From Nitrospinaceae bacterium (GTDB lineage: Bacteria; Nitrospinota; Nitrospinia; Nitrospinales; Nitrospinaceae), in assembly GCA_965223665.1 (NCBI GenBank), contig CBDCXH010000003.1, positions 1-13,415 of the forward strand: a DNA stretch of 13,415 nt, written 5' to 3'. Below are positions 283 through 13,415 of the stretch, piece by piece. The notes below the pieces were generated by a model. That model had not been told where the DNA came from and ran no database searches. It was given only the letters and a program-made list of their open reading frames with translations. Both the position numbers and the translations under genes were made by a program. Numbering within the stretch: position 1 is the stretch's first letter; each line of letters opens with the position of its first letter.

Positions 283-945
283 TCATTTAGAGATTTTCAA
301 TTTCTTTTCAAAACTTGAAACTTTTCTCAATAATTTCTCCCATAGGTTTGGATCCACACCCAAAACTTCTGCCATAACCTCTCCGGAGAGGACAGCAAAA
401 AACATTGCATCTTCGGCAAGAAATAGTTGACTTGGAATCTTAGTTTCGTCGCGATCACAGCTCAAATATAAGCAGGCTTGCCTTATCTCCTCAATCTTTC
501 CATGTTCAGCATCTTTAATAAATTTTGCAACCCGATCAACTCCTAAAATATGATCTAACCTCGAGTTCACTAATGCTCCTTGGCATGCTGCCATTAAATG
601 TTTACTTCGGTGTTTATAAAACCAATCTCTTCTATTGACTTCACAATAATCATCTGGCGTTCCCTTAGAAAAACTTATTAGTTCAAATCTAAGCGGACAT
701 AATTTTCCGGTTTCTTCTAAAGTTAATATTGAGAAAAATATAGAAAACGAATATTTTTTCGATAAAAATAACTCTGAAGCATGGCCCCAACATTCTTCAA
801 TATATCCAATGTATTTTAGGCTTTGACTGTAGGCATCATCAAAGGTGGGCCCTTTTAAAATTCTAGGGGGTTTTCCAATTCCTATTAATTTACAGTGCTC
901 CTTGAATAACCTAAAAGCGTCTTTTTTGTTAAGACTTTCTTCCAT
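283..945 (-). CDS. AbiV-family (HEPN_AbiV) abortive infection protein
   Basis: 220-aa ORF with the AbiV-like pattern A-x-x-L-F...Y-S-F-S-I-F-F-S-I-L-T-L-E-E-T-G-K, then FYKHRSKH and RQACLY. Recognised from family motifs. Confidence 0.75.
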   Translation of the reverse strand: MEESLNKKDAFRLFKEHCKLIGIGKPPRILKGPTFDDAYSQSLKYIGYIEECWGHASELFLSKKYSFSIFFSILTLEETGKLCPLRFELISFSKGTPDDYCEVNRRDWFYKHRSKHLMAACQGALVNSRLDHILGVDRVAKFIKDAEHGKIEEIRQACLYLSCDRDETKIPSQLFLAEDAMFFAVLSGEVMAEVLGVDPNLWEKLLRKVSSFEKKLKISK

Positions 946-1292: not shown

Positions 1293-1318
1293 TAAATTTT
1301 CTATCATGGTGACCTTAC

Positions 1319-1342
1319 GTCTACTCACGACCCTTAGCAGTC
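1319..1342 (+). repeat. Site S1: 9-6-9 imperfect palindrome, putative recombination site
   Basis: GTCTACTCA-CGACCC-TTAGCAGTC; intergenic, ends 28 nt before the ATG at 1371. Confidence 0.75.
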
Positions 1343-1370
1343 ATATAACCCTTTTCTACCAATACCAGAT

Positions 1371-2609
1371 ATGAACATCTTTTACTCATGGCAAGCTGAT
1401 ACACCCGAAAAGATCGGCAAGCAATTTGTGCGTCAGGCACTCGACGATGCCGTCAAAGAACTCGCAGAAATATTGGAGCTTGAGGAAGCAGAACGCCCAG
1501 TCGTTGATCAGGATACACTGGGTGTCATGGGATCTCCGGTGATCGTCGAAACAATTTTCGAAAAGATCCGAAATGCGCAGGTTGTTGTCGCCGATTTAAC
1601 TCTCACTTGTGCGACAAAGGAAGGTAAGAAACTAGTCAACAGTAATGTTGCTTACGAACTCGGTTATGCTCATGGTCATCACGGTGATGAAGTTATACTA
1701 ACAATAATGAATACTCACTATGGCCAGGCTGATGATCTCCCATTTGATTTAAAACATCGGAGGTGGCCCGTAAGGTTTGATTTATCACCAGAAACATCAA
1801 AAACAGAGCGACGCAAAGCAAGAGAATCGCTCGCAAAAGAACTCGCCGATATATTACGGCGTTATCTGCAGGGGGTCACTCCCGAAAAAAAGTTTGAACC
1901 TAAACCTTCAACCGTAAATGCAGCCTCCTATTGGAATGAAGGAGAGTTATTGGTCAAATATGGAGGTTCAAATTTTCAAGATGAGCTTCTAGAACTTGGC
2001 TATAACAAAGATCAGCCGCTTATCTATCTGCGAGTGTGGCCCGAAAAACCGCTTGAAGAGCTCTCAGGTAGCCAGCTGGGAGACAATAATTTATCGGGAA
2101 TTGATCCTCTCATGGGACGATATGGGGACTATTACTATCTCCGCAACCAATACGGAGCTATTACATGCTCAAAGGAAAGTACGGGAAAATTAATTGCGAC
2201 AACACAGCTTTTTAAGAGTGGCGAAATTTGGGGCATTGATTCTTCCCTACTAAGACATCGCAACGATTTTGCCACCTACTTCGTCCCAACTACTGTTTTT
2301 GAAAACGGCATAATTCGTTCATTGAATATTTACCTAAAGATAGCTTTTGGGCGTTTGGGATACTCCGATCTTGTTCATTTTGAAGCAGGATTGGTAAATG
2401 TTGAAGGTTTTAAATTGGCCATGCCACAAAATTACATTGACAATTTTTGGGGACCAATCTTTGAAGATATTTCTATTGAAGCAACTATCGATAGGAATAC
2501 ACCAGAAACCACCAATAATGCTTTAATGAAACTATTTGAGAAAGTCTTTGACTCTGCTGGTATGAAACGACCTGATAAATATAATAATTTTCCTCCTTCG
2601 ACTGTCTGA
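1371..2609 (+). CDS. TIR-like/nucleoside 2-deoxyribosyltransferase-like N-terminal domain fused to a ~230-aa C-terminal domain; candidate defence protein
   Basis: 412 aa. N-terminal motifs IFYSWQAD, GSPVIVETIFEKIRNAQVVVADLT, NSNVAYELGYA (putative catalytic Glu) and LPFDLKHRRWP are typical of TIR/NDT-like Rossmannoid effectors. Confidence 0.7.
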   Translation: MNIFYSWQADTPEKIGKQFVRQALDDAVKELAEILELEEAERPVVDQDTLGVMGSPVIVETIFEKIRNAQVVVADLTLTCATKEGKKLVNSNVAYELGYAHGHHGDEVILTIMNTHYGQADDLPFDLKHRRWPVRFDLSPETSKTERRKARESLAKELADILRRYLQGVTPEKKFEPKPSTVNAASYWNEGELLVKYGGSNFQDELLELGYNKDQPLIYLRVWPEKPLEELSGSQLGDNNLSGIDPLMGRYGDYYYLRNQYGAITCSKESTGKLIATTQLFKSGEIWGIDSSLLRHRNDFATYFVPTTVFENGIIRSLNIYLKIAFGRLGYSDLVHFEAGLVNVEGFKLAMPQNYIDNFWGPIFEDISIEATIDRNTPETTNNALMKLFEKVFDSAGMKRPDKYNNFPPSTV

Positions 2610-2671
2610 GAGTTCTCTAGCAACTATTCTGAAATTGATACTATTGATGCAGATATTCTCTTGCCGTGAAG

Positions 2672-2695
2672 AACAGCTTTTGGCCGAAAACGGTC
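2672..2695 (+). repeat. Site S2: 9-6-9 imperfect palindrome, putative recombination site
   Basis: AACAGCTTT-TGGCCG-AAAACGGTC; 62 nt after the stop of the 1371-2609 gene. Confidence 0.7.
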
Positions 2696-2797
2696 TATCT
2701 AGAGGTATATTATCTTTTTTTGAATATCCGGATTAGAGTATTTGCAGAATTAGCAAGTTTAGCAGCTCGACGCTTTAAAGTTACTAATTTTGACTCG

Positions 2798-3022
2798 TTA
2801 CGCAGGAAAGAATCGAATTCCAACGGCACGGTGAATTGGAATTCCACTAAACAATACTAACTCGGGGACGATCACAACCCCACCGCCAAAACCGAACATG
2901 CCCAACAGGAAACCAGTTCCCATTCCTACAAGTATGAGCAGAATGGCACATCGAGTCGTAAATTTAAGTTTCCCACCTCCCTCACGCTGGCATGCTGATG
3001 TCTCTAGCTTAGATTTATTCTT
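2798..3022 (-). pseudogene. Internal fragment of a TauE/SafE (TSUP family) sulfite exporter gene
   Basis: Not in the ORF track. Manual translation of the stop-bounded frame gives ...SACQREGGGKLKFTTRCAILLILVGMGTGFLLGMFGFGGGVVIVPELVLFSGIPIHRAVGIRFFPA*, matching the TSUP motif G-x-x-x-G-x-F-G-x-G-G-G-x-x-I-V-P...H-x-A-V-G. No start codon upstream of the homologous part; it stops right after the motif. Confidence 0.8.
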
Positions 3023-3127
3023 TTACTGATAAATAGCATTAAAATTATATTAAAAGCTAAGATGAATATAGCTTTTTGCCTAGCTATCTCCTGGTTACAA
3101 GGAATTTGAGAGCAACATACCAAATTA

Positions 3128-3156
3128 TTGACATTAACGGCAAGTTGAAATAGAGT
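3128..3156 (+). promoter_or_regulatory. Putative sigma70 promoter for the 3188/3854 gene pair
   Basis: TTGACA (3128-3133), 17-nt spacer, TAGAGT (3151-3156); 31 nt before the ATG at 3188. Confidence 0.65.
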
Positions 3157-3187
3157 GCCGCAACTCAATTTAAATTAAAAAAAGCCT

Positions 3188-3814
3188 ATGCCAAATAATA
3201 TATATTTCCATGTAAACAAAAGGCCAAACATTTTGCCGCCAGAATCACCTGATTTTGAGTTGATGAAACAAGGACAGCAGATAAAGGTTGGAGATGAAGT
3301 GAATCCGTTTTTTCGACGCTGGAAAAATGAAATCCCATTTAAGGTTTATGGTAGCGAGACTTTTCCAAATACTCTGCCCTTTAATGAATTTTTGGAAAAT
3401 CTTGTAAAAGGAGAATACAACGAACATGCGGAGTTTCCGGGCTTTCTATGGAACCCATTAATGGTCTATTTGGGGTGCCTCAGCGAATTGGTTTTGGAAT
3501 CAATAAGAATTAAAGAGTTTAAGGCCTTACCTTCAAGACAGAGATGTTTATGGCTTATTAAGACCCTAGATGAAGCTGTAGAATGGGCCTCAGATACTTC
3601 TTCTGGTAACAAACATCAGATAGTGAGGGTTCGTGTTGAAGGGAAAATATTTGAATGCGATGCATCTTTGTTAAATTATGAAAACCAATCTTTGTCAGAT
3701 ATGGAGGAAACGGCGCGATTGTATTGGTTGGGGAAACAACCCTTTGAACGAGAGGAAATTCTTTTTGAAGGAAATGCCGAAGTAATTGAAGTTCTATCGA
3801 ACGAACAGCCTTAA
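3188..3814 (+). CDS. DUF2441-like protein (possible ADP-ribosyltransferase-like fold)
   Basis: 208 aa with ELVLESIRIKEFKALPSRQRCLW, GKIFECDA, ARLYWLG and EILFEG, matching my recollection of DUF2441 proteins; N-terminal YFHV strand. Confidence 0.65.
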   Translation: MPNNIYFHVNKRPNILPPESPDFELMKQGQQIKVGDEVNPFFRRWKNEIPFKVYGSETFPNTLPFNEFLENLVKGEYNEHAEFPGFLWNPLMVYLGCLSELVLESIRIKEFKALPSRQRCLWLIKTLDEAVEWASDTSSGNKHQIVRVRVEGKIFECDASLLNYENQSLSDMEETARLYWLGKQPFEREEILFEGNAEVIEVLSNEQP

Positions 3815-3853
3815 CCCATTGTTTGATGGAAAAAGCTCAGGGGATTTTAAAAA

Positions 3854-4288
3854 ATGAAATTCTGGGAAAAATGGATACAAAGTAGAAAGCTAAGGAAACA
3901 ACTAAAGAAGAAAGATAATAAATGTAAAATTTGCGGTTTACGGGCCGAAATCTTAGAAGATGACGATAAATTTGTCTTGTGTCATAAACTTTTTGAAGCT
4001 GGAATTGTCAATCAAAGGTTTCCAAGAAATATCTTCATGGGAACAGAAAACTCAAAAGGAAACAGTTGTCCAGATGAATATTGCGTAATTGGCTCTAATA
4101 AGTGGAATAGGTTCGATGAGAATTGTCCTTGGTGGCAGTTTAAAAATGAAGAATTAGGGTTAGAAGGTCATGTCTCAATTTATCATGCCAATAGGAATGC
4201 TGAGTCAGCTCGATTCCTAGCTATTGTTGCAATAATAATTTCGATTTCTATCTTATCGGTGATAATTTATATCAATTTTATTAGATAA
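3854..4288 (+). CDS. Hypothetical protein, Cys-containing, with C-terminal transmembrane helix
   Basis: 144 aa with CKIC and four further Cys, and a hydrophobic tail FLAIVAIIISISILSVIIYINFI. Starts 39 nt after the 3188-3814 gene on the same strand. Confidence 0.65.
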   Translation: MKFWEKWIQSRKLRKQLKKKDNKCKICGLRAEILEDDDKFVLCHKLFEAGIVNQRFPRNIFMGTENSKGNSCPDEYCVIGSNKWNRFDENCPWWQFKNEELGLEGHVSIYHANRNAESARFLAIVAIIISISILSVIIYINFIR

Positions 4289-4400
4289 GAAATGGCCCTC
4301 TACATTCCCTACAAATACCCGAATTGCTTCGAAAGCGCGACACTGATACAACCATAGCATAAAAATGGTATGAGATCAAAACTGTCAATCAAGCTCTAAA

Positions 4401-4424
4401 GACAGCTTTCGACCCAAAGCGGTC
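4401..4424 (+). repeat. Site S3: 9-6-9 imperfect palindrome, putative recombination site
   Basis: GACAGCTTT-CGACCC-AAAGCGGTC; arms are complementary at 8 of 9 positions; intergenic between 4288 and 4625. Confidence 0.8.
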
Positions 4425-4624
4425 ATTCTCGGTAACTGAATATACAAACCGATCGCAAGTCTTTTAGAGACACCTTCCTTATAATATAGCTGTACCACCA
4501 TAACGCTTTCAAAAGATATCGGGCATCCGGAAGGGATGTGACGTGAAAGCATACAAGTACAACCTGCCGCTATCAATCTGCTGACTTTCTCTCTCCGGCA
4601 AATTGGGGTACACTCTCCCACATT

Positions 4625-5239
4625 ATGATTCGATTCCTTTTATTCATTGTCGTTGTTCTGGTCTTAGGGTTCCCGACCTCATCCATCGCTGCCGCTCCAA
4701 ATAGTATTCATATTGAAGAAAATGAAAAGGGCATCACGGTTTGGGTGAATGAAGCGTCCTTGGATGATGTGTTGGAGTCCATCACAGAAAAAGCCGGGAT
4801 TCAGTTCCGCTCGTCCCCTTGGATAATGAATGACCCGATCACGGTCAACCTGAATGCTCCAAACTGGCCAACCGCAGTGAGACAGCTTCTCGAATCCTAT
4901 AGCCGAGTGGAACTGTTAAATTCCCAGCAGGAATTGACCCAAGTTCATATCCTGTCAAAGTCAGATGATACTGCAAGTCTCAAACCTGAGAACCCGAGAA
5001 CAGCCTCGGTATCCACAACAGCATCCTCCCCTCAGTTGAACCGAAGGCAATTACGCAAAATAGGTAAACGACCCTTTAGGGCGCCGCTCCCCCCAAACCT
5101 GTTCGACGATCCAGAGATACGAAACTTTTTAAACCAGTACAATATTCATACACTGGAAGATATGAAGGATGTCAAAAAAACCCGAAGAGTTCGAGTTCGC
5201 GCCCGTGATTTATTGCTAAAAATGACCCGGGCTAAATAA
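4625..5239 (+). CDS. Secreted/periplasmic protein with a secretin-N/STN-like domain
   Basis: 204 aa. Signal peptide MIRFLLFIVVVLVLGFPTSSIAA; segment ITVWVNEASLDDVLESITEKAGIQF...ITVNLNAPNWPTAVRQLL resembles secretin/TonB N-terminal domains; basic C-terminus; no beta-barrel. Confidence 0.6.
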   Translation: MIRFLLFIVVVLVLGFPTSSIAAAPNSIHIEENEKGITVWVNEASLDDVLESITEKAGIQFRSSPWIMNDPITVNLNAPNWPTAVRQLLESYSRVELLNSQQELTQVHILSKSDDTASLKPENPRTASVSTTASSPQLNRRQLRKIGKRPFRAPLPPNLFDDPEIRNFLNQYNIHTLEDMKDVKKTRRVRVRARDLLLKMTRAK

Positions 5240-5255
5240 AGAAACCCGAGTCATT
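5221..5255 (+). repeat. Inverted repeat/hairpin overlapping the stop of the 4625 gene
   Basis: AATGACCCGGG (5221-5231) and CCCGAGTCATT (5245-5255) are complementary at 10 of 11 positions. No U-tract follows. Confidence 0.5.
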
Positions 5256-5370
5256 GTAAACCATACCCATTGCCAGTTTGGGAGAGCAAAGTCACGACAA
5301 CACCTCTCCCGCTAAAGATTCCGACATTAAGACCGGCACATCAACCTTTAGGAATATCGGATGACCGCCA

Positions 5371-5399
5371 TTGACAAATCAATTGTGGTGACCTACTAT
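5371..5399 (+). promoter_or_regulatory. Putative sigma70 promoter for the 5489 gene
   Basis: TTGACA (5371-5376), 17-nt spacer, TACTAT (5394-5399). An AGAGGAG ribosome-binding site precedes the ATG at 5489. Confidence 0.75.
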
Positions 5400-5488
5400 C
5401 CTCCCAAATATATTAAAGAAGCAGTCATTACAGGAAACCCCCATCAACGTTTTGAATGGGAAAGTTATCGATATAGAGGAGAATACCT

Positions 5489-6043
5489 ATGTTTAAACGA
5501 ATATACCTGATTGTATCTATTGTAGCGCTCAGTTTCATGATTGCCCCTACACTAGTGTTGGCGAACACAGCAGACGGCAATACCCCTGCTGAGGAAACCG
5601 TATGCGACGGACAAAGCGGAGCGGCCTATGGTCTGTGTAACGCTTACTGTGAGGCCATGGACTGTGACAGCGATAGTCCCAACGCAAACCAATCAGCCTG
5701 CGACAAGGTTGGAACCAAGTTCGAAAACATTACGGGAGAGATTCCACCTTGTGAAGTAACTTGTCCCTGCGCGGGTGTTGTACTTGATACGGGTTATAGT
5801 TGGGAGGATACAAGCGGGTTCGATTCTTGTCAAAACTCATCAACTTTCACGGTTCTCAATGATACTATTAATGGTGACAAAGTGCTCAAGAGAGCCAATC
5901 AAAATGGCTGCGATTTTTGGGACGATTTCAGATCCCCAGGTAACTTTTTTTCTACGCAAACGACACCAGACGAACACAGAGCTTGTGTGAGAGACCTATT
6001 GGCTCAAGCGAAGGCTGCAGATGTCACCTGCCCAACTCCTTAA
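5489..6043 (+). CDS. Secreted cysteine-rich protein of unknown function
   Basis: 184 aa. Signal peptide ending ...TLVLA; 12 Cys including VCDGQSGAAYGLCNAYCEAMDCD and PPCEVTCPC; strong RBS. Confidence 0.8.
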   Translation: MFKRIYLIVSIVALSFMIAPTLVLANTADGNTPAEETVCDGQSGAAYGLCNAYCEAMDCDSDSPNANQSACDKVGTKFENITGEIPPCEVTCPCAGVVLDTGYSWEDTSGFDSCQNSSTFTVLNDTINGDKVLKRANQNGCDFWDDFRSPGNFFSTQTTPDEHRACVRDLLAQAKAADVTCPTP

Positions 6044-6190
6044 AGGGAGCAAGCAATAAAAACCCGCAAACGTTTCCACAATTGGGTAAGCGGGGAGGTT
6101 GCCCATCCTTGAAACAGGCGAATGGTCTGCCCGATGTGCTGTTCATCGGCACAAGGCTCTAAGCCGGGAGATGGGTTCTAAATAAAATTA

Positions 6191-6227
6191 AAAAGATGGC
6201 GGTCCTTCGGGGCCGCTATTTTTGTTT
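6191..6227 (+). terminator. Intrinsic terminator, possibly bidirectional
   Basis: Stem ATGGCGGTCC (6196-6205), TTCG loop, GGGCCGCTAT (6210-6219), then TTTTGTTT; an A-tract precedes the stem. Confidence 0.85.
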
Positions 6228-6238
6228 GTGTGTTTAAC

Positions 6239-6262
6239 GTCTACTTTTGGCCGATTGCGGAC
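6239..6262 (+). repeat. Site S4: 9-6-9 imperfect palindrome, putative recombination site
   Basis: GTCTACTTT-TGGCCG-ATTGCGGAC; directly after the terminator, between convergent genes. Confidence 0.75.
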
Positions 6263-6427
6263 AATCGAAGTTGCTAGGGAACGTCTGCCTGGGCGAGTGC
6301 GAAAAACTGCCGTTTGTAATTGAGAAGTGGTCCTATAGTGTTCACAGTTCCCGTGGGCTATAAGCTAGTTACGTTTACAACCTTAACGATTCCTTACCAC
6401 AGGGCTAGTCGGTGGCACCAAGGGGAG

Positions 6428-7420
6428 TTAGTGGAGCAAATCCTGGGTTTCTGTCCAGATATATAAATCCTCCAAAAAATCACCCTGAATTCTCCACAGA
6501 AATCCATGATCCTTCGCTTTACCATCTTTCAGTGACAGCGTGAAATCGAGATATACCTTGCCTTCGCCAATTAAACGCAAGAATTTAATGATTGAAGGTG
6601 ATTTACAATAATTAACGCTCTCTATGCAGCAAACTTCTTTTTCCTTTTCTACCCGGGTAGATAGCGTTATATACGCTGTTTGACTATGCTTGGAAAGCAA
6701 TGCTTCCTCAATGCTTTCTGCATCGTATTCCAGTACTTCGTTACCGCCATTCATTACAACTACTCGATCCTGCTTGGGTACTAAGTAAAATCCAAATGAA
6801 TCAGGTGTATTGCAAAATGACGTGTATAGGGCCTTACGATTTCGCTTGGCATCCTCATAACCATATCTATCCAGTAAATCCATCTTGTCAGAACATCCTG
6901 TATATTTGGATGGCACCCTTGAAAATAACGTCTGTAGCGTTTTATCGCTCTTTGTCTTTAATTCGATGCCCATGAAATCGGGATACTTGCTGCTATTTTG
7001 TGGGATACCAAGTGCATTCTCTATAGATAGACCAAATCGGCCAGTGCCTTTACCAATGACTGGGATTGGTCCTTTACGTTGCAACCCTCGTAGTTTATGA
7101 AACAAGATTTCATGTGGTTCACGCTCTTGAACCCGGCCTTTTCTGACGCGATCAAGGACAACTAGTTTTAGGAGATTCTGATACTGAAACTTGGGTTTCA
7201 ATCCATCGCAATATGGGAGATTCTCCTCATATAAAACAGCACTGATATTCTGGAACTTGTATTCAAAGGCCTTGGCACTGCGATTAGGAAATTTTTCTGC
7301 CAAACCCTGGTATATGGCTGATTTAACTGGCTCCTTCCGCTTGTTCTGGTCATCAAGTAGCTTGAAATACGCATCTACTGCGCCTTTCACTTCTGCTTCT
7401 GTCCATGATTTATTCTTCAA
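6428..7420 (-). CDS. MvaI/BcnI-family PD-(D/E)xK endonuclease with an extra N-terminal domain
   Basis: 330 aa, TTG start with AGGTGA RBS (7425-7430). Motif GTGRFGLSIENALGIPQNSSKYPDFMGIELKTK...TLFSRVP...KDHGFLWRI. The N-terminal ~90 aa carry WTEAEV...YFKLL...RSAKAFEYKFQNISAVL...GLKP. Confidence 0.8.
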   Translation of the reverse strand: MKNKSWTEAEVKGAVDAYFKLLDDQNKRKEPVKSAIYQGLAEKFPNRSAKAFEYKFQNISAVLYEENLPYCDGLKPKFQYQNLLKLVVLDRVRKGRVQEREPHEILFHKLRGLQRKGPIPVIGKGTGRFGLSIENALGIPQNSSKYPDFMGIELKTKSDKTLQTLFSRVPSKYTGCSDKMDLLDRYGYEDAKRNRKALYTSFCNTPDSFGFYLVPKQDRVVVMNGGNEVLEYDAESIEEALLSKHSQTAYITLSTRVEKEKEVCCIESVNYCKSPSIIKFLRLIGEGKVYLDFTLSLKDGKAKDHGFLWRIQGDFLEDLYIWTETQDLLH

Positions 7421-7652
7421 TTCATCACCTGTATTTGTGGAAATAGGCCTTTGCAGCTAACAGAACCGCTGTCAGTTCAGAATATTCTCAGATTAATCCA
7501 CAAAAAATCAAGAAGCTACATCATAGGGCGTGCTAATTGAAGATAATTAAGTGATGTTTCTTACCTTCTATAATTTTAACCAGACTCAAGAAGAGTGTTT
7601 ATTTGAGGATTAAACGGCTGACCCGCTCCTGTAAGTTGTACAACAGATGAAT

Positions 7653-7676
7653 GTCCGCATCTGGCCGACTACTGAC
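7653..7676 (+). repeat. Site S5: 9-6-9 imperfect palindrome, putative recombination site
   Basis: GTCCGCATC-TGGCCG-ACTACTGAC; 75 nt beyond the stop of the last core gene (7752). Confidence 0.7.
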
Positions 7677-7751
7677 GACCCTATACTGACAAACCCCCAT
7701 AATCCATTCCAGATATTAAACCAATCATTTAGAAAACCTACTTAGCAATTT

Positions 7752-8057
7752 TCATTTATCAATTAAACCCACCAACCAATTCAATTCACGCCTTACCCTC
7801 ATAGAATCTTTTCTTTGTTGAATAACTTCTGTAGAACGGTTCCCGTGTTTCCAGTTGGCCTTATGACTGCGTTCCAAACCTTCCAACGTGCGAGGTCCTG
7901 TGCTCTTACCCCCATGCAATCGACAACGTCCATTTTTCATTGCGGGACATTGGCAAGGAGTTCCTTTTCTAGTTTTTGCCCCACACCGAGGTGCTTGGTT
8001 GGCATAGTTTAAACCTATCTTCCAAATGGGTTGATGGGGTTCATTGATGTTTATCAT
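7752..8057 (-). CDS. HGGxSTG-domain protein
   Basis: 101 aa: RCGAKTRKGTPCQCPAMKNGRCRLHGGKSTGPRTLEG...KANWKHG. Overlaps the upstream gene by 17 nt. Confidence 0.9.
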   Translation of the reverse strand: MININEPHQPIWKIGLNYANQAPRCGAKTRKGTPCQCPAMKNGRCRLHGGKSTGPRTLEGLERSHKANWKHGNRSTEVIQQRKDSMRVRRELNWLVGLIDK

Positions 8058-8751
8058 GATCCCCCCTTGTATCTAAGGCCCCGGTGACTACTGCTTGGCC
8101 TCCATCCTTAACGTTGATATGTTGCACAGTGATGGTTTGGTTTCCTCCCTTTCGAAGTTTATGGAGAGCCATTAAACCTTTCTGAAAACTATCCATCATT
8201 CTTGCAGAAGCATTGGATGCTCGTATAGACTCTAATGAATAATATTCCTTACTTTGGAAGGTGATTGCTTTATCACTTTCATTCAAATTGCTCAGTGAAC
8301 GACTGGCAAATGTCATTGCTAATTTATGAGCGGCCCCTAATTGGTGAGCCAACATTTTTTCCAATGAGTTCTTAGCTTGGATAGTTTCAGCCGCATCCAG
8401 AGCGAGTCCGGTGCAGTCTGTATCGAATATCAATTGCAGTCGTTCTTGACTCGCTTCAGCAGTTACATTATCAGGTTTTTCGACGGTATTAATCAAAGCG
8501 GGTAATTCCTCAACTCTTTCTTTGGACAATGATAATTCACCACCACAACCCACAGTGGGATGCTCATTCTCTGGAATTTTTATGGCTTCCTGAACCTGCT
8601 CTTCTAACTCATTTGCATCCAAACGCATGAAACTGGCTCCCAATTTATCTACACAAGGAGGAGATTCCAGTTCATTAGCCGTAGCTCTCAGGTTTTTTAC
8701 TTCAACCTTATCTCTTAATGCTTTTTTTAATTTATCTTTTGGCTTTGACAT
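8041..8751 (-). CDS. Conserved hypothetical protein of the type found upstream of HGGxSTG genes
   Basis: 236 aa with LALDAAETIQAKNSLEKMLAHQL...ARMMDSFQKGLMALHKLRKGGNQTITVQHINVKDGGQAVV; recalled as a recurrent neighbour of HGGxSTG genes in integrated elements. Confidence 0.75.
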   Translation of the reverse strand: MSKPKDKLKKALRDKVEVKNLRATANELESPPCVDKLGASFMRLDANELEEQVQEAIKIPENEHPTVGCGGELSLSKERVEELPALINTVEKPDNVTAEASQERLQLIFDTDCTGLALDAAETIQAKNSLEKMLAHQLGAAHKLAMTFASRSLSNLNESDKAITFQSKEYYSLESIRASNASARMMDSFQKGLMALHKLRKGGNQTITVQHINVKDGGQAVVTGALDTRGDHDKHQ

Positions 8752-8785
8752 AATTCATCCAAATGAAATTAGAATTATATGCTTA

Positions 8786-9085
8786 TTAATTTTTCCAATG
8801 TTTTTGCAATTCTTCTCTAATATCCTGAATTTTCATGCTACCTGGTTTCCACCAATGGTACTTTTGATTGCAATCAAAAGGAATTACTAAACTTTTTTGT
8901 TCATTTAAATAAGGTTTGGGTGCTAACTTTTTAATTATTTGAATTAATTGAGGCTTAAAACACTTTATTTGTTCAATCAGTTCTTCCTCAATAGGTTGAT
9001 TTCCTGCGCACTTTAATTGGTTTCCTTCAACACTTAACTCAAAACCTTTTTTTTGTATTTCTTTCAAAAATTGCTGAGGGGTCAT
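8786..9085 (-). CDS. Small protein with a TubC N-terminal docking domain-like region
   Basis: 99 aa: FLKEIQKKGFELSVEGNQLKC...LIEQIKCFKPQLIQII. Its start overlaps the primase stop as ATGA (9082-9085). Confidence 0.65.
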   Translation of the reverse strand: MTPQQFLKEIQKKGFELSVEGNQLKCAGNQPIEEELIEQIKCFKPQLIQIIKKLAPKPYLNEQKSLVIPFDCNQKYHWWKPGSMKIQDIREELQKHWKN

Positions 9086-11547
9086 ATCTTTACCTCATGT
9101 ATAGAAGAGTCCAGATTTCCTTTAGATTTCTTAGGAAAAACGCCGTTATCGCCGTCCGGGCCGAACAAATCTTTATTTTTAAAGGTTGTATTTTTTGGCG
9201 GCCTTTTGTCGGCGTTGGCCTGGGTCGACAAATCCTCGTCAACAAGGAACTCTTTATTTATAAAGGAGTTATTCTCCATTACGTTGGTCATGTCGGCCTG
9301 TTCGACATTTTCCGGAACTTTTCTAAATGTGACAATTTTTCGACCAGTGCCTTTTTTTCGTTGATCAAAATCGACTTCGATTCCGATTTCCAGCAGGGTA
9401 GGAGCCAACCTCCTGACTCGGTTCGAAAGTACGCTTGGAGATTTGGGCCATTGTTTGTTTCCACTGACTCTGAAATCTATCTGTTTACCGAGTGCGGAAA
9501 ACAAATCTGAAAAGCTACCTTCCCATTTTTCTTGCATGACAATGAATTGAATAATGGCCTGGGCCAATACATCTGTTTCAAGACTGTTTTCAATCGCTAA
9601 GGCAAGGTTATTCTCATATTCTTTTAGAAAAGATCCAGATTCCCAACCTAGAAATGATTCAGCAGCCGTAACCCACTTTGCAAAATCGGCCATGCGAGGA
9701 TACGAATTCAAGGTTACCTTTTCGTATTCCTTTAGGGCATGACAAACAGTATCCAATAACGCTCCTAAAATTTTGGGACGGGCTTCTTCAAAATCTTTTA
9801 ACAAAGTTTTTTCGTCTTTCCTTTTTTCTCTTGGGATTCTTGGCAGGAAAAAAATTAAAGATCTGTCTCTAAGGTCATCCCGTTTGCAGATGTCATCAAT
9901 ACCATTCAGAATCATGGGACGCTGGGAATCAAAAATGATCTCTTCGGAATCGGTATATAATTCTCGGGTGCTAAATCCTCCCCCAGTCGATAGTCTGCAG
10001 AAAGCATCGGATAGCCACGGGGGAATACCACTCAAATTGTCAAAGGCTAATATCCAAGAGTTTCTGGCGCTGATCATCAGATCTCGGCACTCTTTCGGTG
10101 TACTTCTCAATTGCGATATTGAAGGATCGACTACAGAACGGATGATGCGACTGAAGGTTGACTTGGCAGAACCGTGTTCGCCTTGAATGACCAATATAGG
10201 AAAAGGGCCTTTGGATTTTAAAGCTGCGATCAAATAACCCACGACCAATTTTTTCTGGTCCTCACGAATATTAATGAATTTAAACAATTCATCAACCTTA
10301 CCCCCAGATACTGGATGAGGAAGGGGACCCATTCCCCTCGCCCGGACAAATTTAACCGGAGATTGGGAAATAACTTTCCAACCTGTGCAAGTGATTTCTA
10401 CGACTTCCCATTTGTCATTGCACAGATCTAGGTAAATATTTCCATCCGCTTCACCTATTCGTGTATAAACTGGAATGGTTTTGCCTTCAAATCTAGCTCT
10501 GCCTTCCAAAATTCCTAAGGCATCGCTTAGAGCTTGATTTCCTGGGGGCTTATTGAACTGAGAGAAAAATTTATGACCTAGCCATAACTTGAAACTCTTC
10601 GATCGGACTTGACTGGTTTCGTTATGGTCCTCTACCAGATAAGTTACATAGGCTGTCCCATCAGGGTTGTGAAAAAATTCGCAACTAGAGGTCAGGTCAA
10701 TCAACGACTGCGCTTGGGTTGGTTTTTCATCCCCTGAAAGATCAGAGAAAGAGCCATTAGAGATAGTTACGTGCGAATCGGGAATATTTTCTTCACCAAA
10801 ATAACTCGCATAGCTTCCTTGGTATATAGGAGCTTCATCGACTAACTTCTTTAATTCTTCAATTGAATTTTCCTCAAGGTAATCAGAAACGTCACAGCCT
10901 GATTTGCAGTCCTTAAATCGAATGATTTTGATGGACTGAGCATATTTAAAAAGATGTTCCGAAACCAATTTGCCATGAGCACGTCCCTTTTCATCATTGT
11001 CTTCAATAATCACTACTTCCCGATCTTTAAAGTAGAGATTGTATTCTGATTTCCATTTTGCCTCACCATCGAAGTTGGTGGTTGCCGCAAGGTTATGTTT
11101 GGATAAGTTATCTGCATCCTTTTCACCTCCCACCAAATAAACTGTTCCTGTACTCTTTAATAACTCTGGAAGTCTATAAAGGACCCGTTTGGTGTTGCCA
11201 AGTTTCCAAGTCCAGCCTCCTGATCGTTTTGGTTTTCTAAGTCGAAATTCTTTAGAAGGGTATCTTACTTTTTGAAAAAGGAGATTCCCAGTCTCATCAT
11301 GATAAGGATATACTTTGATTATTGTTTCTGAATTGCCATCTTCTAGTCTACCCTTCCAACCACAGTGGTGACAAAACCAAACCCGTTTGTCTAAATTGAC
11401 GGACAGGCATCGTGCCGTCTTCTTTTGACGCCCATGAGAACATTTTGGGCATAACGTGCTTACTTCTCCAGCTTGTTTCTCATCAATCTGAATACCAAAG
11501 TCAGCAATCGAAATAGCCTCTTTTAATTTTTCTTTATCAATATTCAT
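9082..11547 (-). CDS. Primase-helicase: Zn ribbon + TOPRIM + C-terminal ATPase (SF3-like)
   Basis: 821 aa. CPKC...WFCHHCGWKG zinc ribbon; TOPRIM VYLVGGEKDAD and IIEDNDEKG; Walker A-like GEHGSAKST; Walker B-like ILAFDNLS; STGGGFSTRELYTD. Start overlaps the upstream stop (TAATG). Confidence 0.85.
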   Translation of the reverse strand: MNIDKEKLKEAISIADFGIQIDEKQAGEVSTLCPKCSHGRQKKTARCLSVNLDKRVWFCHHCGWKGRLEDGNSETIIKVYPYHDETGNLLFQKVRYPSKEFRLRKPKRSGGWTWKLGNTKRVLYRLPELLKSTGTVYLVGGEKDADNLSKHNLAATTNFDGEAKWKSEYNLYFKDREVVIIEDNDEKGRAHGKLVSEHLFKYAQSIKIIRFKDCKSGCDVSDYLEENSIEELKKLVDEAPIYQGSYASYFGEENIPDSHVTISNGSFSDLSGDEKPTQAQSLIDLTSSCEFFHNPDGTAYVTYLVEDHNETSQVRSKSFKLWLGHKFFSQFNKPPGNQALSDALGILEGRARFEGKTIPVYTRIGEADGNIYLDLCNDKWEVVEITCTGWKVISQSPVKFVRARGMGPLPHPVSGGKVDELFKFINIREDQKKLVVGYLIAALKSKGPFPILVIQGEHGSAKSTFSRIIRSVVDPSISQLRSTPKECRDLMISARNSWILAFDNLSGIPPWLSDAFCRLSTGGGFSTRELYTDSEEIIFDSQRPMILNGIDDICKRDDLRDRSLIFFLPRIPREKRKDEKTLLKDFEEARPKILGALLDTVCHALKEYEKVTLNSYPRMADFAKWVTAAESFLGWESGSFLKEYENNLALAIENSLETDVLAQAIIQFIVMQEKWEGSFSDLFSALGKQIDFRVSGNKQWPKSPSVLSNRVRRLAPTLLEIGIEVDFDQRKKGTGRKIVTFRKVPENVEQADMTNVMENNSFINKEFLVDEDLSTQANADKRPPKNTTFKNKDLFGPDGDNGVFPKKSKGNLDSSIHEVKI

Positions 11548-11798
11548 TAATTTCCCCCCAAAACCCAGTCAAAATATTTTGGGACATTAATGATTATTTT
11601 CTTACCCAGCTTGATAATGGCCTCTGATTTTTCTAACCCATTATTTTTTCGGTTGAAAATTTGGTAGCGTAGACCTCCTTCACTAATAAAGTCATATTTG
11701 TTGCAAAATTTTGCCACTGTTAATAATTCTGGGACCTCAGTGGTTACAGGCGTAAGAAAACGATTTACCGTCTTCGAATTGTGATTTCTTTCATTCAT
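11547..11798 (-). CDS. AlpA/excisionase-like winged-helix DNA-binding protein
   Basis: LLTVAKFCNKYDFISEGGLRYQIFN...NGL...AIIKLGKKIIINVPKYFDWV. Start re-called to the ATG at 11798 (83 aa) because an AGGAG RBS precedes it. Position upstream of the primase is typical of satellites. Confidence 0.7.
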   Translation of the reverse strand: MNERNHNSKTVNRFLTPVTTEVPELLTVAKFCNKYDFISEGGLRYQIFNRKNNGLEKSEAIIKLGKKIIINVPKYFDWVLGGN

Positions 11799-11945
11799 AA
11801 ATTCAGCTCCTAAAATTGTTACCAAACAATAATCAACATCAATAAACAATATTGATTGTTTCTAACGAAATTTTAGGAATTTATGCTTTTATTTGACAGG
11901 GACATTAAAGGGGGGGAATTTGTCCTTAATTTCTGGGAGAAAAAA

Positions 11946-12767
11946 TTAAACCTTGGAGTGGGTAGGAAGATTTTTTATTCCTTTCCTTCGCAATCCTTTA
12001 ATTAAGGATTCTTTACTTTGGACAAAATCTTTGTGTTTTTTATAAACAAGGTCAATAATTTCATCTGATGTCAATCCATTTTCATATTTTTCTCCCATAA
12101 AAGTAAAGGGTTTGCCAGAGTTGGATTTTTTTATTACACGTTTTCGAGTTTCAATAATGGCTCCCCAGGGAATTGTTTTTCTTGGCGAGTTGACTAACCT
12201 AGCAACCAAACTTGCTGCTTTTTCAGTGCGTCCATGTTTCATGAAAATTCCGTCAATAAACCTTTTTAATTGAGTATGGACGAAAACTTCCTCTAAAATC
12301 TCTTCTATATAATCTATAGTAAATTCGTATTTGGTGGCAGAATCTAATGCCCTTCTAAGCAATTCGATCTCATTTTTTGTGAACTTTATTCCTTTAAATT
12401 TATTTTCTAAAATTTTTCCTTTTAGTTCTTCATAACTTTTTTTAATGGCCGATGCATTATCTACTAATTTTTTGTGAAACTCATTGAACTCACTCATTAA
12501 GGGATTATTTAGTTTTATGGTGTCCCATAAATGACCTCTTTGATGTTCTTCAAATTTTAGTAATTCTAAATCGTATTCTCCGCCAATTTCCAAACCTTCA
12601 ACCATCAAGTCAAAGTCCGATTCAGAGCCTTCAAAAAGTTTTTCAGATTGTAAGGGAATTTTATCTTTTAATTTTTCAAAACATCTTTTTTTTATTTCTT
12701 TCAAACTTAGACCTCTTTTTTCTTTTAGCCCTAAATATTTTATATAAAAAAGATAATCCAAACTCAT
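11946..12767 (-). CDS. Hypothetical protein (Lys/Glu-rich, AT-rich gene), possible regulator
   Basis: 273-aa ORF starting 2 nt after the integrase stop; no family recognised. Confidence 0.7.
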   Translation of the reverse strand: MSLDYLFYIKYLGLKEKRGLSLKEIKKRCFEKLKDKIPLQSEKLFEGSESDFDLMVEGLEIGGEYDLELLKFEEHQRGHLWDTIKLNNPLMSEFNEFHKKLVDNASAIKKSYEELKGKILENKFKGIKFTKNEIELLRRALDSATKYEFTIDYIEEILEEVFVHTQLKRFIDGIFMKHGRTEKAASLVARLVNSPRKTIPWGAIIETRKRVIKKSNSGKPFTFMGEKYENGLTSDEIIDLVYKKHKDFVQSKESLIKGLRRKGIKNLPTHSKV

Positions 12768-12769
12768 GA

Positions 12770-13415
12770 TTAAAGACCAAATATCTTTTCATTCATTTTC
12801 GATACTACGCTATGGGTATGCTGTTCTGAAAGGTGGCTGTAACGCTTCACCATCTGCAATGTTTTATGGCCAAGCACTTCTGCGATCTCAGCTAGCGAAG
12901 CACCGCTCATAGCTAGATAGGACGCAGCAGAATGCCTTAAATCATGGAACCTGAAGTTTTTGATTCCAGATTTTTTAAGCGCGTCTTCCCAGGAGGCTCT
13001 AATATCAAAAGGCTTTTTTCCGTCTTGACTAGGGAATAAATAGCGCGTATCAATCCTTCGTTTTTTGCTTAACTCTTTAATCACTTCAAGAGAACGCCCC
13101 GCAAGAGGCAAAGCCCGACGTTCATTATTTTTAGTTTGATTTAGTATCGCTACTTTTCTTTCTAAATCAATGTCGCTCCATTGCAAACTTAAAATTTCAT
13201 TTTTTCGCGCTCCGGTACTAAGAGCAACAACGACCACTGGATATAAAAAGGGATTGTCATCTTCCTGGCATACCTTCAAAAGCTTATCTCTTTCCTCATC
13301 ACTCAAGTACCTGACTCGTCCTCTGGGTTCCTTGGGCTTAGAGACTTTTCGCATTGGGGTATCATCCATCCATCCCCATTCTTTCACTGCAATGGTAAAG
13401 GCATGACTTAAAGCC
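12770..13415 (-). CDS. int: Tyrosine recombinase/phage integrase (5' part outside the window)
   Basis: Full catalytic set: TGARKNE (R), QTKN (K), HDLRH (HxxR), LGHKTLQMVKRY (H, Y). The frame stays open to the window edge (ALSHAFTIAVKEWGW), so the GTG at 13387 is internal. Confidence 0.95.
   Translation of the reverse strand, partial: ALSHAFTIAVKEWGWMDDTPMRKVSKPKEPRGRVRYLSDEERDKLLKVCQEDDNPFLYPVVVVALSTGARKNEILSLQWSDIDLERKVAILNQTKNNERRALPLAGRSLEVIKELSKKRRIDTRYLFPSQDGKKPFDIRASWEDALKKSGIKNFRFHDLRHSAASYLAMSGASLAEIAEVLGHKTLQMVKRYSHLSEQHTHSVVSKMNEKIFGL

Follow-up and report, generated by a model that had tools for sequence, protein, structure and literature searches.

The DNA analysed here, referred to as the window, is the entire 13,415-bp contig C4 of a Nitrospinaceae bacterium (GenBank CBDCXH010000003.1), whose genome comprises a 4.24-Mb chromosome and five small contigs. 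It carries an array of five short sites, S1 to S5, with small gene modules set between them. We hold, at a probability of roughly two in three, that S1–S5 are degenerate members of a widespread family of double-strand recombination sites, that they form an orphan array, and that a tyrosine recombinase of about 200 residues, found next to such sites in other genomes, is likely their enzyme. S1–S5 probably delimit the modules of the window correctly, and these modules are probably immobile unless a helper enzyme is supplied.

Five co-oriented sites of two spacer classes

Each of the five sites consists of an 11-bp arm, a 6-bp spacer and a second 11-bp arm, i.e., 28 bp in total (Table 1). They are degenerate copies of the consensus ATGTCCGCTTT-N6-AAAGCGGACAT and preserve 13 to 18 of its 22 arm positions, and all ten half-sites in the window are variants of one palindromic arm. 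An earlier note on this DNA had sorted the spacers into two classes, CGACCC in S1 and S3 and TGGCCG in S2, S4 and S5. Both classes were found again in arrays of other genomes, and we refer to TGGCCG as class A and to CGACCC as class B. Direct reading also confirmed the arm sequences described there as shared, i.e., ACGTCTACT in S1 and S4, and ACAGCTTT...AAARCGGTC in S2 and S3.

A site was counted if its spacer was an exact class word and its arms agreed with the consensus, as derived from other genomes, at 13 or more of 22 positions. By this count the window held five sites on the plus strand (three TGGCCG and two CGACCC) and none on the minus strand, compared with a mean of 0.005 sites in 2000 dinucleotide-preserving shuffles (maximum 1), where one site occurred in ten shuffles and two in none. 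An unsupervised repeat search of the window grouped S2, S3 and S4 as one family. With a looser pattern we obtained seven matches in the 13.4-kb contig (0.52 per kb) versus 38 in the 4.24-Mb chromosome (0.009 per kb). Looser scans moreover gave further sites, both on contig C2 and, as several clusters, on the chromosome; the island that shares the backbone of the contig (see below) holds one of these clusters.

The array runs S1(B), TIR-like gene, S2(A), DUF2441 pair, S3(B), two orphan genes, S4(A), nuclease, S5(A+B), backbone. Here, S5 can be read as a compact double site, and this form also occurs twice on the chromosome (locus L001, 9552; locus L002, 9047). All five sites are direct repeats, as the earlier note had favoured: both spacer words always lie on the same strand in arrays of this site family elsewhere. 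Its alternative, in which S1/S2 and S3/S4 would be inverted pairs, is rejected because the classes are always co-oriented. Likewise, no inverted site pair of the inverton or shufflon type, i.e., no reverse class spacer with arms of at least 13/22, was found in the window. Our own first working reading, which took the sites as inverted unit ends, was dropped, the arms being palindromic and the spacers co-oriented.

The site family in other genomes and the borders of its modules

In other genomes the full site reads ATGTCCGCTTT-CGACCC-AAAGCGGACAT. Its arms are inverted copies of one sequence, hence its polarity comes from the spacer alone. The exact 17-mer CGACCCAAAGCGGACAT, taken from chromosomal copies, occurred in at least 124 stretches of a species-representative genome collection, and the hosts among the matches listed were Alpha-, Beta- and Gammaproteobacteria and Nitrospinaceae. 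By chance, the 17-mer alone is expected to give about 70 matches in 596 Gb; a left arm with at least 7 of 11 positions was also present in 82 of the 124 distinct matches among those listed, where chance would give 0.8%. Within Nitrospinota, sites with a perfect core were found in 27 of 120 genomes, and a reversed-pattern control was found in none of the 120. The spacer consensus YGRCCS proposed in the earlier note permits eight words, of which just two account for 53 of the 56 Nitrospinota sites listed (28 CGACCC, 25 TGGCCG, 3 other).

Larger arrays were found in other genomes. The complete genome of Noviluteimonas caseinilytica contains an array of 36 kb (2,774,502 to 2,810,744) with 66 positions of at least 15/22; we counted 32 exact A and 27 exact B sites on one strand (59 to 0), and a second array gave 0 to 7. 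On a megaplasmid of Pantoea eucalypti, 40 kb contain 33 or more sites in which these arms enclose the spacers TGGCAC and GAGCGA, with an orientation of 29 to 0. The usual order in arrays is B, cargo, A, a linker of 5–43 nt, and again B, cargo, A. An A site followed by a B site at short distance occurs 17 times in the Noviluteimonas array, with offsets of 33–71 nt. In the part between 2,783,442 and 2,810,744 (L134/L135), start distances from A to the next B cluster at 37–38, 48 and 58–59 nt, i.e., in steps of about one helical turn, which may reflect phasing or merely related linkers. In phage P2 (L232), fun(Z) is flanked by two sites with the arms of this family, at 15333–15360 (spacer GTGCCA) and 17430–17457 (spacer TCGCTC). 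These spacers are the Pantoea A and B spacers reversed, and fun(Z) is thus a B-cargo-A cassette on the minus strand. No Rfam family matched in the window, in L134 or in L001.

Comparison of related cassettes showed where the modules end. One cassette, present in both Noviluteimonas arrays, was identical from the B spacer through the end of the next A site and unrelated outside. Another, with a small cysteine-rich gene, is common to N. lactosilytica and two positions in the N. caseinilytica array. All three copies have an A site as their starting point, and the end varies: it is the next A site or, for two of the copies, lies beyond the B site that follows. Cassette breakpoints fall in the sites, and the borders of both compared cassettes are sites of different classes. 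Simple excision is one process that fits such borders; a swap of B...A intervals, or independent events that recurred, would fit them equally well. Within 2 kb of the 124 sites among the matches listed, the neighbouring genes have almost no protein families in common; the largest cluster had four members, which were ordinary enzymes.

We also looked for rearrangements of the window itself, a check suggested in the earlier note. Three runs of one sample contain the stretch, in the form of assembled contigs, which cannot reveal rare variants. One contig of 6200 nt spans positions 1705–7904 without a difference, and S2–S5 therein stand in the assembled order. The only joint in the sample contigs runs from 4427 to 6244; it lacks precisely the S3–S4 cargo, with both flanking sites, S3(B) and S4(A), retained. 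Its shorter side is 20 nt only and its depth exceeds that of the plasmid contigs (7.44 versus 2.4, and 4.7 versus 2.1), and it may come from another replicon or locus with similar sites. Moreover, one sample contig starts at 4394, there is a loose end at 4397 just before S3, and another at 6263 just after S4 continues into a different CGACCC site. At most, these contigs hint that S3 and S4 adjoin other sequences in DNA of the same sample. The sole joint thus links an unmatched B/A pair, and joints between the matched-spacer pairs S4/S5, S1/S3 and S2/S4 were not seen in these contigs.

A candidate recombinase, the proposed mechanism and its alternatives

The Pantoea array itself encodes a tyrosine recombinase of 200 amino acids, annotated as 'site-specific integrase', whose start is preceded by a site at 37 nt. 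In N. gilva the homologous genes (56–57% identical) are preceded by a site at about 63 nt, and one of them is also followed by a site at 28 nt; N. lactosilytica has fragments of such genes at contig ends. Altogether the small recombinase lies between the sites or beside them in Pantoea, Noviluteimonas, Pseudomonas and two Nitrospinota genomes. The latter two (G053, G056) were the only ones with full-length copies among 120 Nitrospinota genomes; in G053 the gene has sites on both sides, and in G056 one site was seen, just beyond the 3' end. Of 586 candidate stretches for this family at least 556 were confirmed, and the best 80 were analysed. Here, half-sites of fixed polarity recurred: upstream of the gene, 23 of 77 loci have an arm followed by a spacer; downstream of it, 33 of 76 have a spacer followed by an arm; and 15 have both, against a background of 0.096 per 500 nt, a contrast flattered by a pattern that was written after examples had been seen.

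The protein shows the PF00589 catalytic domain only and falls far below all curated family cut-offs. Its nearest solved relatives by sequence are XerA (PDB 4a8e) and XerH (5jjv) with E of about 2e-4 to 4e-4, and the best partial NCBIfam matches are XerA and XerC. Arms that face the recombinase gene are non-canonical, and eight of the 15 loci with two half-sites are bracketed by inverted sites of the same class (L162, L164, L173, L178, L229 and others); the recombinase gene so bracketed could itself be switched by inversion.

In the genome that carries the window (98.6% complete), the Pantoea protein had no match at E 1e-3 or better. With a three-member profile we retrieved from it XerC, XerD and two further, unrelated tyrosine-recombinase frames and nothing else, none of them better than E 4.5e-5. 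No small recombinase was found in 20 other genomes of the host's family, and no recombinase at all at the flanks of the large Noviluteimonas array. Of the roughly 124 site loci among the matches listed, just one has a tyrosine recombinase of any kind within 2 kb. The sites of L003 have two odd paralogous recombinases nearby, which were discarded as candidates, not being conserved in other site-bearing genomes. A serine recombinase was considered as well, given a 28-bp site and an arm that resembles a resolvase half-site (TGTCYNNTA); none was found in the host genome. The array of the window is most likely an orphan because the genome has no member of the recombinase family and the arms are degenerate.

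We propose an ordinary double-strand tyrosine-recombinase reaction, as indicated by the geometry of the sites, by their identical arms and by a catalytic domain of Xer type in the recombinase. The small catalytic-domain-only recombinase would bind the arms as a symmetric dimer and would exchange strands within the 6-bp spacer, between sites of the same class only. Segments between two A sites or two B sites would leave as circles and re-enter at any site of their class, and two crossovers, one at either end, could move a B...A interval from one replicon to another in a swap. For the window, the formal deletion pairs would be S4×S5, S2×S4, S2×S5 and S1×S3, together with pairs that use the B half of S5. 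The units that the earlier note had listed as excisable by spacer matching (S4–S5, S1–S3, S2–S4) are hence a correct formal prediction for sites with the 11-6-11 core build. Excision at the present day is doubtful because the genome is devoid of the site-linked recombinase family and the arms are degenerate. The array would rather be a frozen, imported cassette store on a plasmid-like element, mobile only with the enzyme in trans.

Several observations weigh against this proposal. The enzyme is absent from most site-bearing genomes, i.e., from 25 of the 27 in Nitrospinota and from the complete N. caseinilytica genome with its approximately 60 sites, so another enzyme might act in trans. Its link to the sites is one of gene position only; of the 80 best recombinase loci just 14 have a full site of at least 17/22, and in just four is such a site less than 250 nt or so from the gene, and the stronger half-site figures come from the pattern made with examples in view. 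Same-class specificity is taken from general knowledge of tyrosine recombinases, for which unlike spacers should not recombine, and simple same-class excision does not directly predict the different-class borders in both cassette comparisons. The degenerate arms of the window (S1, 13/22) might serve a diverged enzyme that our searches did not find, and in other genomes we found no close relative of the window's cargo genes set between sites of this kind.

The proposal can be extended, tentatively and at well below even odds, to a natural cassette exchange in which one minimal recombinase would serve a cross-phylum pool of cassettes with identical arms and mutually incompatible spacers, B in front and A behind. 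Such an exchange is suggested because the B-cargo-A build recurs, lineage-specific spacer pairs sit on constant arms, and the compared cassettes have different-class borders. A single cassette would then not be lost by excision between its own ends. It would be swapped as a B...A unit among plasmids, phages, islands and chromosomes, and each lineage would keep the arms and its own spacer pair, i.e., TGGCCG/CGACCC here and TGGCAC/GAGCGA in enterobacteria and phage P2.

Other enzymes or other functions could in principle account for the sites. One alternative would be an attC-like unit, in which a composite of A, linker and B folds as single-stranded DNA (ssDNA): outer arm would pair with outer arm and inner with inner, the non-complementary spacers would be left as a bubble in the middle, and no spacer matching between partner sites would be needed. 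The recurrence of A then B at short distance in the Noviluteimonas array fits this fold, as do the compact forms in the host genome and at S5 and the frequent position of the recombinase gene in the linker. Furthermore, an A site lies at such a distance upstream of nine of the 124 listed B sites compared with none in the reversed control, and the left arm of the composite B site is consistently GTGACCGCTTT, which would give a fixed A–A mismatch in the fold. We nevertheless consider this fold unlikely, as many perfect 28-bp sites with palindromic arms are solitary (e.g., three consecutive B sites in L012), S1–S4 are single sites, cassette borders lie at single A or B sites, and linkers vary between copies; the recombinase, moreover, lacks the extra domain of integron integrases and stays far below their cut-off. 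We give almost no credence to a classical integron cassette array without integrase (CALIN). Single-gene modules separated by repeats would look alike, and a relative of the S1–S2 gene is an integron cassette elsewhere. However, attC sites measure 57–141 bp and have RYYYAAC and GTTRRRY cores, which on direct reading are missing from S1–S5 and from the 124 listed related sites, all 28 bp long, and none of five genomes tested has an integron integrase at the curated cut-off (best TIGR02249 score 82.8 bits versus 265). Very unlikely, too, is that the sites are resolution or attachment substrates of the element's own integrase (12770–13414). This tyrosine integrase is encoded on the same contig, and full-length homologues occur in three of four other site-bearing genomes tested, in one case 5–13 kb from sites. 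Yet none of the three loci of its closest full-length relatives (50–75% identical; L136–L138) has a site, four more distant loci hold just three weak, chance-level matches, and contig C6 with its intact paralogue has none. The gene itself is broken at the contig end with its N-terminal domain missing, and, as stated above, tyrosine recombinases are almost never found within 2 kb of the listed sites.

Recombination of pdif-like modules by the host's XerC and XerD would agree with the 11-6-11 geometry, with the plasmid-like element and with the presence of both proteins in every genome examined. It seems hardly tenable, as the two arms of our sites are one sequence and so offer no XerC/XerD pair, and the sites are co-oriented instead of alternating. 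The chromosomal dif site, a canonical one with the sequence AGTTCCCATAACATATATTATGTTAACT at C1:720379–720406 near a GC-skew extreme, has no arm in common with them; it lies 50 kb from the maximum of the cumulative GC skew at 670 kb. Finally, the palindromes might not be recombination sites at all. Each can form an 11-bp hairpin, they are located at gene ends, and most have no recombinase nearby, as would be expected of hairpin terminators, REP-like repeats or operators. This is highly improbable in view of near-identical 28-mers with two discrete, co-oriented spacer classes across phyla, which cluster in arrays of unrelated small genes, match no Rfam family and are linked to a recombinase family; in addition, identity between cassette copies ends inside the sites. 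We therefore favour recombination sites of a dedicated small recombinase over these alternatives.

Modules of the window and comparison with known systems

Table 1. Sites, cargo genes and backbone features of the 13,415-bp window.
Feature	Position	Strand	Details
AbiV-type HEPN defence gene	283..945	-	left of S1; PF18728 1.6e-12; PADLOC AbiV 1.8e-23
S1, class B	1317-1344	+	ACGTCTACTCA CGACCC TTAGCAGTCAT; spacer 1328-1333; arms 13/22; 26 nt before ATG of TIR-like gene
S1-S2 cargo: 412-aa protein, weak TIR-like N-terminal domain	1371..2609	+	PF10137, E 1.1e-4, under curated cut-off
S2, class A	2670-2697	+	AGAACAGCTTT TGGCCG AAAACGGTCTA; spacer 2681-2686; arms 14/22
S2-S3 cargo: DUF2441 protein (3188-3814) and 144-aa ORF (3854-4288)	3188..4288	+	PF10386, E 1.9e-17
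S3, class B	4399-4426	+	AAGACAGCTTT CGACCC AAAGCGGTCAT; spacer 4410-4415; arms 18/22, best preserved
S3-S4 cargo: 204-aa and 184-aa ORFs	4625..6043	+	
S4, class A	6237-6264	+	ACGTCTACTTT TGGCCG ATTGCGGACAA; spacer 6248-6253; arms 16/22
S4-S5 cargo: MvaI/BcnI-type nuclease-like gene	6428..7420	- (antisense to array)	PF15515 E 5e-35; PADLOC REase_II
S5, class A	7651-7678	+	ATGTCCGCATC TGGCCG ACTACTGACGA; arms 14/22
S5 as compact A+B double site	7651..7692	+	arm 7651-7661, TGGCCG 7662-7667, 8 nt, CGACCC 7676-7681, weak arm 7682-7692
Element backbone	7771..11507	-	90% identical (blastn) to chromosomal island C1:3022334-3026071
Replication-protein-like gene, 821 aa, part of backbone	9082-11547		weak Helic-prim_T7_N and Rep3_C matches
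Tyrosine integrase, C-terminal 214 aa, broken off at contig end	12770..13414	-	PF00589 8.8e-35; outside site-linked family

The open reading frames (ORFs) of the S3–S4 module had no match in Pfam or PADLOC, and the TIR-like protein had none in PADLOC. The N-terminal 95 residues of the nuclease-like protein match the PADLOC candidate PDC-S36. No methyltransferase gene is adjacent to its gene, and it may be a defence nuclease of another kind and not a classical restriction enzyme. Within the phylum, relatives of the cargo genes were distant only and had no adjoining sites. In metagenome contigs we found four loci with relatives of the cargo, none with sites and one behind a classical attC: on contig L249 (1985–2105), a 61% identical relative of the TIR-like gene stands directly behind an integron attC (GCCTAAC...GTTAG), which suggests that the same type of cargo moves in both cassette systems.

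The island that shares the backbone (L001, C1:3022000–3040000) has a different cassette set with the same bounding sites, and a P4-type integrase at L001 12755–14038. Positions 11513–13405 of the window are similar to contig C6. Joining the ends of contig C4 did not restore the integrase frame, the closest relative of which is in a metagenome-assembled genome (MAG) of Nitrospina. The sample contigs scarcely cover positions 1–448, and one of them extends 728 nt past the window end; contig C4 is hence perhaps not a closed circle, and the actual molecule may encode a complete integrase.

If the small recombinase acts on these sites, they constitute a second gene-cassette system beside integrons, common to several phyla and phage P2. 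It would be simpler than integrons in both sites and enzyme and would work on double-stranded DNA, and its two-spacer logic would explain a module-by-module exchange of defence and accessory genes. Module borders in plasmids, islands and prophages could then also be read by a rule based on the sites, and the enzyme would be a compact natural recombinase with heterospecific sites for engineering.

Keyword searches of the literature, with supplements outside their scope, found no description of this recombinase–site system, and the site words matched only in unrelated papers, probably as primers. Inverted repeats that flank fun(Z) and other variable genes of P2-like coliphages were reportedly described by Nilsson, Karlsson and Haggard-Ljungquist in 2004. 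A later paper, as far as its accessible part goes, cites Nilsson et al. 2004 only for variable loci. The same-arm sites at fun(Z) tie our family to the repeats reported around P2-like variable genes, although their spacer pair differs from that of the window.

Acinetobacter pdif modules are alike in that 11-6-11 sites bound plasmid gene modules in differing contexts. In pdif, the sites are dif-like, one arm being specific for XerC and the other for XerD, and successive sites point in opposite directions, whereas the sites described here have identical arms, show no likeness to the host dif, are all co-oriented and are linked to a dedicated small recombinase. This recombinase differs from Xer proteins by the absence of an N-terminal DNA-binding domain; in its size of about 200 residues it is similar to FimB and FimE. 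With integrons the system shares mostly single, unrelated and co-oriented gene cassettes between sites, a tyrosine recombinase, common orphan arrays, and defence and small-enzyme cargo. Unlike attC, its 28-bp core sites have palindromic arms, no RYYYAAC/GTTRRRY boxes and two mutually unmatched spacer classes, and unlike IntI, its candidate enzyme lacks the N-terminal domain and the IntI-specific insertion, with no need for folded ssDNA evident. There is an engineered parallel as well. In recombinase-mediated cassette exchange with heterospecific lox or FRT sites, spacer variants recombine only with themselves, and here, too, one recombinase, identical arms and two self-only spacer variants would flank a cassette, in this case as a natural design.

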